A stretch of DNA of 64,000 bases. Source: a bacterium. Its GTDB lineage: Bacteria; UBA8248; JACPRG01; G963555815. The position numbers and the translations under genes were made by a program. The DNA is taken from NCBI GenBank assembly GCA_965261595.1, contig CBDHDG010000002.1, positions 96,001 through 160,000 on the forward strand, read 5' to 3'. The notes beneath the pieces are model-generated. The model saw only the letters and a program-made list of their open reading frames with translations, made no database searches and had not been told where the DNA came from. Shown here in pieces: positions 58,333 through 62,957 of this stretch (position 1 is the first letter of the stretch; every line of letters starts with the position of its first letter).

Positions 58333-59129
58333 TCACAGCAAATCGTCGAAATCCGATTCCAGCAGGAGCGCGCGGGAGATCTTGTTGTCCACGCAGAAGT
58401 GCTTGACGAGGAAGACCACCTCCAGGACCCCCTTCTCGCTCAGCCCCAGCCGGCGGACCTCCCGCATGTGGAAGTCGATCCCTAATCCGACTTGGCGGTC
58501 ATGGACGCCGCCAGCGCCAGGATCTCCTTGGTGAGGCGGTCGAGCTTTCGGCCCGTGAACGCGGTCTTCACGTAACTCCAGTGGTCGCCCAGGTAGCCGG
58601 GGTCGTTCGCCATCACGCGGTGGACCCCCGGGACGAAATCCATCTCGTAGAAGCCCTTGATGTCGTCGAAGACCTCTTTGACCTTCCCGGCGGCCTTGGC
58701 CTCATCCACCAGGGAAACAAGGGGTTTGCGGATGCCTGGGTCGTTGAAGGGCAGGGGGACCCACACGCCGTCCGCCACAGCGTTGATCCCATGGACGGTC
58801 CCGACCGTGTAGGCCAGCTCGTACCAGATGTCGTCGTCCTTCAGGCCTTGCTGCTTCCCGGCAGCGGTGTGCGAGGCCGTTCAGTAGGGGCAGACGTTGA
58901 TGGCGCTGACCGCCGAGGCGATGAGCTCCTTCGTCGTCCGGGGGAGCGCGCCCGGGGAGAGCGCCCGCCGGGTGCACCGCCCCTGGCCGGCCCGGAACTC
59001 CGGGTAGTGGCTCAGGACACGAACCATCTTCGGGACGAAATCGATGTTGAAGAACTCCTTGACGTGCTGGAACTGCTTTTGCGTCTCTTCGGGAAATTCG
59101 GATTCGTCCCGAATGCGGACGGTCTCCAT
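58333..59129 (-). CDS. Tandem-domain AhpD/CMD-like protein, predicted selenoprotein (CPYU, TGA 58883-58881), with a 1-nt frameshift near 58483
   Basis: GAGGAGG RBS; KELIASAVSAINVCPY-U-TASH reads in frame into ORF 58778-58482; second domain KEILALAASMTAKSD[Y]GIDFH is completed in a shifted frame. Confidence 0.82.
58844..58878 (-). promoter_or_regulatory. SECIS-like hairpin
   Basis: GCTGC-CGGGAA-GCAGC upper stem, GGCCT/AGGCC lower stem, loop 20 nt after the UGA. Confidence 0.65.
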
Positions 59130-59448: not shown

Positions 59449-60168
59449 TCAGCGGGCCGCGGACAAAGACCGGAGCGCTTCAGGCGCCTCCCGGAAATGC
59501 CGGATCAGGACGTCCGGCGCCGCTCTCGCAAGCCGCGCTTCGCTGTTGTAGCTCATGGGCCAATCGACGGCGATCGTCATGACGCCCGTCTTTTGGGCCT
59601 CTCGAATGTCTTTTTCCATGTGCCCCGCGTACGCGCAAGTCTCGATGGGAATTTCATTCTCGGACAGGATATGCAGAATCCCGTGGGCCTTTGTTCTGCC
59701 GATGTGGTCGGGATTGAAGACCGTCGTCCACTCCCGCGCCGCGAGAGAGACGCGGGATTCTGGGAAAAATTTCCCCAACCCCAGACGCTCGATCTCCGCG
59801 CGGACGAATTCTCCTCCTTTCGATGTAATGATGGAGCAGGTCACGCCGTCCCGACGCAACTCTTCGAGCACCTCGGCGGCGCCCTCACACAGCTTCCCCT
59901 TCGGCTCGCCCTTCGTGGCGCGGACCAGCTCCGCCCGCAGCACCTCCCGGTCGTAACCCGGCATGAATTCCGGAATGATGAACTCGTCCAGCGTCCCCTC
60001 GGTGACGTCGCGAAAGTGATCGAACGTGATTTCGCTCAGGCCGTGCAGGACCAGGACCTTATTCGTGATCGAAAACGCGACGCGCACGTCGTCGTAAAGG
60101 ATCCCGGGAAAGCTCAGGATGAGGTGATCGATGGGCCGGGCGGACGCGGCGTCCCGTGATGCCTCCAT
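59449..60168 (-). CDS. HAD-superfamily protein with degenerate catalytic motifs
   Basis: AAGGAG RBS; LILSFPGILYD, EGAAEVLEEL..G..CSIITSK, YAGHMEKDIREA..GV.TIAV. Confidence 0.7.
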   Translation of the reverse strand: MEASRDAASARPIDHLILSFPGILYDDVRVAFSITNKVLVLHGLSEITFDHFRDVTEGTLDEFIIPEFMPGYDREVLRAELVRATKGEPKGKLCEGAAEVLEELRRDGVTCSIITSKGGEFVRAEIERLGLGKFFPESRVSLAAREWTTVFNPDHIGRTKAHGILHILSENEIPIETCAYAGHMEKDIREAQKTGVMTIAVDWPMSYNSEARLARAAPDVLIRHFREAPEALRSLSAAR

Positions 60169-60254
60169 GCTGTCCGCTCCTTTTCGGGACCGATGGGCCC
60201 GGTCTTCTCCGGCCCCGGACCATCGCCGGGAACGGGGCCGCGGTGTGAGGGGGT

Positions 60255-60854
60255 TCATGAAGTCCCGGGCGTCTCTCCGATGCGGACGCCTTCGAGCCCG
60301 AGCATCCGGGCTTTGGTCGAGACGCCGCCGGGCGCCGAGAATCCTCTCAGGTCCCCCCGGGACCCGATGACCCGGTGTCACGGAACGGCGATGGGAAGCC
60401 GGTTTTTGGCCATGACGACGCCCACCGCGCGGGCGGCCCCGGGCGAGCCGGCCGCGGTCGCCACCTGGCCGTACGTCCGGACCCGTCCCCAACCGATTTT
60501 CCGGGTCACGCGCGTCACCCGCCGGGAGAAGGGAGAAAGGTCCGAGAGGTCGAGGTCGAAGCTCAGCGTGACCGGTTTGCCTTCAAAGTAATCTTCGACC
60601 GATTGGATGACCCGTCGAAGAAAGGGGTTGGGGGGATTGCTCAACCGGGCATCCAAATCCCTCAACTCGGCCTCGACTTGTCCCCGGCTGTCGAGATGGA
60701 GGATCAGGCGGCGGAGACCTCGTTGGGTGGCGGCGGCGCCTGCCCAACCGAAGGCCGTCCGAAAAGCGGCGCCTTCGAGTCCGGAAGGAGGTTGGGGCCC
60801 CGGACCGGCTTTCGCATTTCGAGGGGGCTGATTGCGGCCGTTCGAAGCGGTCAT
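60255..60854 (-). CDS. ogt: Methylated-DNA--protein-cysteine methyltransferase, predicted selenoprotein (PUHRV, TGA 60380-60378)
   Basis: [75 protein letters not shown]. Confidence 0.88.
60347..60367 (-). promoter_or_regulatory. SECIS-like hairpin
   Basis: TCGGGTCCC-GGG-GGGACCTGA, 9-bp stem, loop 19 nt after the UGA. Confidence 0.7.
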
Positions 60855-61149
60855 CGATTTCTCCTTCACCCATAGGTCTTGTGCTTGCTACGCTGAAAGC
60901 GTACAGTATATAGTATCTTCGCGAAAGATAGTCTCCTGTCTGGCATGTCGAGTGGAGTTGGTGGTTCGCCCAGAAAGCGGCGGCGGATTGCGCGGATTAC
61001 GCCGGCGTTTCATTTCAAATCGGCCGTCCGTTTGTTTGAGGCGGGTTCGGTCCGTTGGTTTATGCGGACGCATGCAAGGCGCTGAGGTTTCACCGAGATC
61101 GCCGGAGAATCAGTCGGCCCGCGGCGCTTGAAAGGGAGAATGGATCTCC

Positions 61150-62409
61150 GTGAGACGAACACTTGAGGACATCGATCCGGAAATCGCCCGCGTTATCGAC
61201 CTTGAGCAGACCCGGCAGGAAGAAGGTCTCGAGCTCATCGCGTCGGAGAACTTCACAAGCGCGGCGGTGATGGAGGTCCAGGGGTCGGTCCTGACGAACA
61301 AGTACGCCGAAGGGCTGCCCGGCCGCCGGTATTACGGGGGCTGTGAGCATGTAGACACGGCCGAGAACCTTGCGCGCGAACGGGTCAAGGCCCTGTTCGG
61401 CGCCGCCCATGCCAACGTTCAACCTCATTCGGGGACGCAGGCGGTGACGGCCGGATACCTGGCTTTTATCCGTCCGGGCGACACCATCCTCGGCATGAAC
61501 CTGGCCCACGGAGGCCACCTGACCCACGGAAGTCCCGTCAGTATTTCCGGGGGCCTGTTCAACGTTGTCGCCTACGGCGTGGACCCGAAGACCGAGCGGA
61601 TCGACTTCGACGACGTTCGCTCCAAGGCGCGGGAACACCGTCCGGCCATGATCGTCGTCGGGGCGAGCGCCTACCCGCGCGTGATCGAGTTCGATCGGTT
61701 CCGGGAGATCGCCGATGAGGTGGGCGCGAAGGTCATGGTCGACATGGCCCATATCGCCGGCCTGATTGCGGCCGGAGCTCACCCCAATCCTGTTCCCCAT
61801 GCCGACGTTGTCGCCGCCACGACGCACAAGACGTTGCGCGGACCGCGCGGCGGGTTTGTGCTGACCAACGATGAGGAGACCGCGAAGGCGCTGAACAAGA
61901 AAGTCTTTCCGTACCTTCAGGGAGGCCCTTTGATGCACGTCATCGCGGCCAAGGCGGTGGCTTTCAAAGAGGCGGCGACGGAGGCGTTCCGGGACTATCA
62001 GCGGCAGATCGTGCGCAATGCCGCGGCGCTGGCCGACGCCCTGCTTTCGAGCGGAACCCCGCTCATCTCGGGGGGAACGGACAACCATCTCATGCTCGTC
62101 GATTTGCGCAAGAGTCCGGTGGACGGGAAGACCGCCCAGCTCGCCCTGGAAGCGGCCGGGATCACGGCGAACCGGAACGCCGTGCCGTTTGACGAGCGCT
62201 CCCCCTTCGTGGCCAGCGGGGTCCGGATCGGGACGCCCGCCGTGACGACCCGGGGAATGCGGGAAGAGGAGATGCGCCGGATCGGCCGGTGGATCTCGGA
62301 GATTTTGGGCGACGTGGAGAACACCGCCTTGCAGGCCAAGATCCGCGAGGACGTCCGGGAGCTCTGCGGAAGGTTTCCCCTCTATGCGGGAAGCCCGGCC
62401 GCGGCCTGA
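61150..62409 (+). CDS. glyA: Serine hydroxymethyltransferase
   Basis: [36 protein letters not shown]. Confidence 0.97.
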
Positions 62410-62432
62410 GCCCTCCACGGGAGGTTTTTTTC

Positions 62433-62957
62433 ATGAAATGTCCATCGTGCGGCTCGACGGGAACGAAGGTCATCGACTCGCGCTTGACCAAGGACGGCAA
62501 CGCCATCCGCCGCCGCCGCGAATGTGAGAGCTGCGAGCGGCGCTTCACGACGTATGAGCGCCTGGAAGAGGTCTTTCCGCTTCTGGTGAAAAAGGACGGC
62601 CGGCGCGAGCCGTTCGAACGCGGCAAAGTCCTGGCCGGAATCCAGAAAGCGCTGGAGAAGCGCCCGGTGAGCGCGGATGTGCAGGAGGCGATGGTCGACC
62701 GGGTCGGGCGGTACATCCTCGAATCGGGGGAGAAAGAGATCCCCAGCGGGGTGATCGGCGAGCGGGTCATGGCCGCGCTCCGGGAAGTGGACCATGTGGC
62801 GTACGTGCGCTTCGCGTCCGTTTACAGGTCATTCAAGGATCTGGACGACTTCATGGTTCAACTGAAGGAGTTGTTGGCGGAGCATGCACACGGAAACGAC
62901 GCGGTGTCGGCGGACCTCGCGGCCGCGCGTTTCGAGGGGTCCTCTCCCGGCCCTTGA
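62433..62957 (+). CDS. nrdR: Transcriptional repressor NrdR
   Basis: [30 protein letters not shown] cone, [10 protein letters not shown]. Confidence 0.96.

Follow-up and report, generated by a model that had tools for sequence, protein, structure and literature searches.

A predicted selenocysteine-containing Ogt/MGMT-family DNA alkyltransferase retained in most genomes of a bacterial phylum

DNA alkyltransferases with selenocysteine (Sec) at the active site are a predicted selenoprotein family that has been known since 2005, when the first was proposed in Carboxydothermus hydrogenoformans (CHY0809, ABB14497.1; PMC1287953). The Sec form was described there as unique to one species and as having 'most likely evolved very recently'. 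Two Sec-Ogt sequences were subsequently listed from the Olavius symbiont metagenome (PMC1976440) and one, among 2,879 Cys homologues, from the GOS metagenome (PMC2398784), and the predicted family appears again in reviews of 2022 and 2026 (PMC9312934, PMC13188914). As presented in these sources, CHY0809-type proteins contain PF01035, have UGA for the active-site Cys codon with a stem-loop just downstream, and were found via Sec/Cys homology, with no biochemical characterisation given. The initial annotation of the locus described here, which was made from the sequence alone, placed the family in computational selenoproteome lists, and these five sources bear that out. It also knew of no biochemical characterisation, which stands for natural Sec-Ogt proteins (literature searches, with most subscription journals outside their scope, found none) but not for an engineered human one. 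None of the papers found by these searches links the Sec-Ogt family to Nitrospina-type bacteria. In a 2026 database paper (PMC13326102), three metagenome-assembled genomes labelled Nitrospinota or Nitrospinae (GTDB phylum UBA8248) rank with the ten bacteria richest in selenoproteins. A term search of the BSepDB supplement file, which may be a different table, found no mention of the family.

The engineered protein is human AGT C145U (Haruna et al. 2014; PMC4150793), in which the alkyl-accepting residue is likewise Sec and which gives E. coli without ada and ogt protection against MNNG. It is artificial, with Sec encoded by UAG and delivered by EF-Tu with no SECIS, whereas the natural form is UGA-encoded. 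According to that paper, the U145 protein is about equal to wild type in a survival assay, with no striking gain, and it tolerates N137A, a change that inactivates the Cys form. The corresponding Asn (N151) has been retained by the natural Sec forms, even though its replacement is tolerated in the engineered protein only when Sec is present. As human AGT C145U is functional in vivo, alkyl-acceptor chemistry by Sec is plausible, and by this analogy the role of Sec as alkyl acceptor at the present locus appears to be well founded.

Two other groups of proteins provide useful comparisons. The ordinary Cys proteins (Cys-Ogt, the Ada C-terminal domain and human MGMT) have the same domain and the same frame, N-x6-P-[C/U]-H-R-V followed by L-E-G, and the alkyl transfer, a presumed stoichiometric SN2 reaction, would be the same in both; the protein described here differs in its Sec nucleophile, and so would require a SECIS, SelB, SelA, SelD and selenium. 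The ATL proteins (e.g. 3gva, which matches our query at E 1e-8) have the DNA-binding alkyltransferase fold in common with it. They are without a nucleophile and are not known to carry out alkyl transfer, whereas the Sec protein retains one, which is stronger than Cys.

The gene is located in a 64,000-nucleotide stretch of DNA (the window; positions 96,001 to 160,000 of CBDHDG010000002.1, assembly GCA_965261595.1), from contig 2 of a 6.17 Mb genome in seven contigs. It lies on the (-) strand at 60255..60854 and encodes an Ogt/MGMT-family alkyltransferase of 199 residues, with Sec predicted at residue 159, ending at a TGA stop (60257-60255). The start codon is the ATG at 60854, where the NCBI-annotated relatives begin at an equivalent Met, and a Shine-Dalgarno-like AAGGAG (60861..60866, (-) strand) is positioned 6 nt upstream. 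A GTG at 60869, upstream and in frame, is an alternative start; in two other assemblies it is ATG (C>T on the + strand). The frame from ATG 60854 has 158 codons before the in-frame TGA (60378..60380, (-) strand), which is opposite the Cys of PCHR. Close to this codon, position 60392 differs in other assemblies, changing an Ile four residues before the Sec to Leu, and close relatives carry the same Leu.

The alkyltransferase C-terminal domain (DNA_binding_1, PF01035) extends over residues 108-190 (60285..60533, (-) strand) and spans the Sec codon; the match is continuous across the TGA and scores 96.3 bits against a Pfam cut-off of 27 (E 1e-27). The read-through product also matches NCBIfam TIGR00589 'ogt' with 79.7 bits (cut-off 46.4). 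The N-terminal Ogt ribonuclease-like domain (Methyltransf_1N, PF02870) is a weak match at residues 52-103 (60546..60701, (-) strand), with 20.7 bits against a cut-off of 21. The initial annotation had read a TGA in place of the PCHR Cys with a full Ogt C-terminus beyond it, and the translation and the PF01035 match across the TGA confirm both points.

Forty-seven solved protein chains match at E ≤ 1e-3, including the OGT/MGMT structures 4wxc, 1sfe and 1eh6. In alignments with these chains, and with full-length Cys homologues (the nearest of which have 44-47% identity and carry Planctomycete labels), the Sec residue is exactly opposite the catalytic Cys of P-C-H-R-V. In human AGT the residues that support the nucleophile are an Asn eight positions before it, the His that follows it, the Arg of the A-A-R-A-V-G helix, the Tyr of T-Y-G and the Glu of L-E-G. 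All of the conserved supporting residues of the Ogt/MGMT active site are present in the Sec protein: N151, R142, Y128 and P158 are invariant in a 13-sequence alignment, in which H, R, V and the LEG motif are also present downstream of the Sec. We propose, with a probability of about 0.86, that the protein is an O6-alkylguanine-DNA alkyltransferase with Sec as its active-site nucleophile, the alkyl transfer and its stoichiometry being attributed by homology. With similarly high confidence, the gene would be a genuine DNA-repair alkyltransferase in which UGA-encoded Sec has replaced the methyl-accepting Cys.

A putative bacterial SECIS hairpin follows the TGA at 60347..60367 ((-) strand). It has nine base pairs (60367-60359 with 60355-60347) and a GGG loop (60358-60356); counted from the T of the TGA, nucleotides 14-22 pair with 26-34, and nucleotides 23-25 form the loop. 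This is the hairpin that was initially described, with its loop beginning 19 nt after the TGA. Bacterial SECIS elements are stem-loops that have a G in the apical loop, with the loop about 16-37 nt from the UGA, and this hairpin agrees with them in position and apical G. When the 76-nt stretch is folded whole, it is not unusual for a genome of 63% G+C (z = -0.25), and single-sequence folding at this scale was replaced by a local empirical control and by comparative analysis. The local 28-nt hairpin is unusual: its folding energy is -16.0 kcal/mol, and among 20,000 28-mers drawn at random from this genome only 74 fold as stably.

The comparative analysis used the genomes of the phylum, and particularly a sister family to the window's own. 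A hairpin is present at the same distance from the UGA in all 43 Sec genes of the phylum, and the register of pairing differs by 3 nt between the two families. In the sister family (35 sequences, 31 distinct), columns 17-23 pair with columns 28-34 in 217 of 217 cells; helices slid along the same alignment as controls pair in only 26-53% of cells. Two of the seven pairs show compensatory change (GC/CG/AU in one and CG/UA in the other), both partners of each being at synonymous third codon positions, and the observed covariation score was reached in none of 500 shuffles. The hairpin is weakened or lost in four Cys orthologues. In the window's own family 92.6% of hairpin cells are paired, and no pair shows a compensatory change among its six nearly invariant sequences, so that support for the hairpin in this family comes from its conservation and position. 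The comparison across the phylum, with TGA at the corresponding codon in 43 of 51 genomes and a hairpin beside each, is decisive in placing both beyond chance.

The machinery for Sec insertion, whose possible absence was raised at the outset as an argument against recoding, is present in the same genome. There is a tRNA-Sec (72 bits; the ARAGORN anticodon is TCA) together with SelA, SelB and SelD; selC, selA, selB and selD are all on contigs other than that of the window, and contamination of the bin is estimated at 5.6%. The SelD (G000:C5:89297-90265, (-) strand, locus L011) itself contains Sec, with one in-frame TGA. SelA is found in 49 of the 51 phylum genomes, and the two genomes without it are 67% and 79% complete. 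The genetic code is not reassigned, since TGA is the commonest stop: of the 6,022 open frames that reach 300 codons, 3,973 end in it. The ogt gene itself terminates at a second TGA (60257-60255). Sec is used heavily by this genome, with in-frame TGA codons in 10 of 15 CMD-family matches.

Public annotation truncates the related proteins. Among 240 listed database homologues, 76 have no PCHR, and 72 of these end with the P just before the Sec position; those ending here include all of the closest relatives. The cut-off entries of these closest relatives, from bacteria labelled Nitrospinota or Nitrospinae, go by 'MGMT family protein' or else by 'methylated-DNA--[protein]-cysteine S-methyltransferase'. 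The mis-annotated records (P0002-P0009, P0011, P0016, P0123-P0179, and others) have 138-208 residues and no active site. Because these public proteins stop at the Sec codon, the organisms would be wrongly scored as having a broken or absent Ogt.

The 72 records that gene callers end at the TGA could also be read as an ordinary Cys-Ogt killed by a nonsense change from TGC or TGT, or as a sequencing error, and one relative (G005) is additionally frameshifted. Several observations argue against this. First, in three other studies there are contigs that cover 60000-61100; they differ from the window at 2-5 positions, none of them within 60378-60380, and so keep the TGA, which the initial annotation had left to be distinguished from TGC or TGT. 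A contig from a metatranscriptome library also covers 60251-60479 and bridges the TGA; because of possible DNA carry-over, this indicates presence in an RNA library rather than proof of transcription. Second, the TGA is shared by 43 of 51 genomes, and the frame downstream is conserved. Between members of the window's family there are 8-15 synonymous and 8-10 non-synonymous differences in the 34 codons after the TGA, a pattern much like that in the 34 codons before it, and we conclude that the region after the TGA is translated and under purifying selection. This also disposes of the initial concern that close relatives might all have Cys with a decaying downstream region: the relatives carry TGA, and their downstream codons are conserved with many synonymous changes. 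Third, the hairpin covaries in the sister family, and in seven of seven genomes of the window's family the Sec gene is the sole Ogt-domain match. Loss of function or error is thus an exceedingly improbable explanation. What the analysis shows is thus the signals for recoding, a full set of genes for Sec insertion, and purifying selection acting on the product of read-through.

The distribution of the Sec form was surveyed in 51 genomes of the window's own phylum. PF01035 matches are present in 50 of these, and 43 have one match with a single in-frame TGA. All 43 of the Sec loci read P-TGA-H-R-V/I, and each is followed by a hairpin in the matching position. In all but one of them (42) the homology continues unbroken through the C-terminus. 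The exception is the copy in G005 (L023, G005:C1, about 96043-96311), where a one-base deletion causes a frameshift eight codons after the TGA; it is that genome's only Ogt-domain match, and either the gene has decayed to a pseudogene or the assembly is wrong at this point. The two families differ in their complement of Ogt-domain genes. In the window's own family the Sec-Ogt is the only PF01035 match in each of the seven genomes (G000 and six others), and in most sister-family genomes a Sec form of about 183 residues is accompanied by an Ada-like protein with the usual Cys, about 359 residues long. The N-terminal region throughout the sister family is unlike the usual Ogt N-domain, and three of its loci (L026, L029 and L030; ORFs of 246-256 residues) have an extra N-terminal segment of ~60-75 residues (MNIKRKS...WMRDR...). 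A related-locus search of the genome contigs returned only two relatives.

Eight of the 51 genomes have no Sec form. Cys orthologues nested among Sec forms are found in G019, G022 and G038, and as a fragment in G014; the protein from G019 differs very little from the Sec form in G007. G041, G024 and G049 have only Cys copies, and G042, which is only 67% complete, has no PF01035 match. Loss of the Sec machinery was considered as an explanation for the Cys orthologues and rejected, given the near-ubiquity of SelA noted above. By comparison with the published description of CHY0809, the Sec form here is kept in a large majority of genomes and is the sole Ogt-domain match of one family. What is new relative to the literature is this near-universal retention in a phylum and the sole-Ogt status in one family, together with the covariation of the SECIS, its decay in Cys orthologues, and the systematic truncation in public records.

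On the proposed reading, SelB and Sec-tRNA(Sec) would bind the hairpin starting 11 nt after the UGA, leading to insertion of Sec at residue 159, and the ribosome would then complete the conserved C-terminus and stop at the second UGA, which is followed by no hairpin of this kind. To judge from its homologues, the protein would flip an O6-alkylguanine into its pocket, where a one-step SN2 reaction would transfer the alkyl group to the selenolate and yield Se-alkyl-selenocysteine and a restored guanine. Each lesion would then cost one protein molecule and one Se atom.

A different possibility is that the main product is the 158-residue protein terminated at the UGA, acting as an ATL-like damage sensor or binder with no transfer activity, and that read-through is minor or dependent on selenium. 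To our knowledge UGA recoding is never fully efficient, and the truncated product would keep the N-domain and part of the DNA-binding domain; the match of the query to the ATL protein 3gva fits with this. However, it would be without the PCHR loop and the whole C-terminal fold, whereas ATL proteins keep the fold and replace only the Cys, and the Cys orthologues that branch within the Sec forms are themselves full length. Both the codons downstream and the SECIS are under selection, which shows that the full-length product matters, and we regard a truncated main product as very unlikely.

A further alternative accepts the full-length Sec protein and questions whether it is a one-shot DNA repair enzyme: the selenoether might be resolved, with turnover, or the true substrate might not be O6-alkylguanine in DNA. 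Compared with sulfur, selenium is the better nucleophile and also the better leaving group, which lends this some chemical appeal, as does the very long retention across the phylum despite the selenium cost of each lesion. The Sec form of the sister family, with its unusual N-terminal region and its position beside an ordinary Cys Ada-like copy, can be viewed in the same way. Nothing in the sequence demands it, however, and N151, P158, the HRV after the Sec and the LEG glutamate, which are invariant or nearly so, are those of an ordinary Ogt. There is no conserved adjoining partner gene as far as examined, and the engineered human U145 protein behaved like wild type for survival. This alternative therefore seems quite unlikely, if somewhat less so than truncation, and the recyclable acceptor suggested in the initial annotation is pure speculation. 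If the Se-alkyl adduct were resolved and the protein reused, it would be the first turnover-capable Ogt.

Nearly all characterised selenoproteins that we are aware of use Sec catalytically in redox chemistry, and here it would presumably be consumed once per lesion, an expensive way to spend a scarce element. That 43 of 51 genomes keep it, and that one family has no other Ogt-domain match, argues that there is a real advantage. One suggestion is that Sec is kept phylum-wide because it changes the capability of suicide repair, either as an acceptor that is proof against nitrosative and oxidative conditions or through a resolvable Se-alkyl adduct; we consider this a long shot, although not as improbable as the alternatives above. 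In the first of these forms, the selenolate may provide an acceptor that stays active where nitrosative or oxidative conditions inactivate a thiol. The relatives carry the labels Nitrospinota/Nitrospinae, a group known for nitrite oxidation. The many natural pairs of Sec and Cys orthologues (e.g. G007 and G019) allow a clean test of the effect of selenium on an SN2 acceptor, and pairwise comparison could address rate, pH and temperature range, substrate breadth, and resistance to oxidation and nitrosation.

Both one origin and two origins of the Sec forms of the two families appear to be compatible with the tree analyses. In quick trees made with FastTree and IQ-TREE, the window's family forms a Sec clade with support of 95-96, and this adjoins Planctomycete-type Cys forms, apart from the Sec clade of the sister family. 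Well-supported branches force at least four changes between Sec and Cys. An AU test did not reject a single clade for the Sec forms of both families (p = 0.08). The 121-row tree used 70 of the 164 PCHR-bearing database matches and leaves out L023 (frameshifted), L054 (which holds an X) and L072, L074 and L075 (fragments); the 58-row tree is a hand-picked subsample. If the two families acquired Sec independently, this would point to convergent selection for it.

The genes flanking ogt in the window are context only. A HAD-family hydrolase gene (59449..60171, (-) strand; PF13419, 56.2 bits) begins 83 nt after the ogt stop, and as no terminator-like site was found between the two genes, they may be co-transcribed. 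On the other side, glyA (serine hydroxymethyltransferase; 61150-62409, (+) strand) and nrdR (62430-62957, (+) strand) are divergent from ogt. One of the CMD-family matches with an in-frame TGA lies only 1.1 kb away from ogt, and this CMD/AhpD-like ORF (58485-59129, (-) strand; PF02627, 57 bits) may encode a second selenoprotein: its TGA (58883-58881) falls in the motif C-P-Y-U, and the frame reads on into a second CMD-like half.
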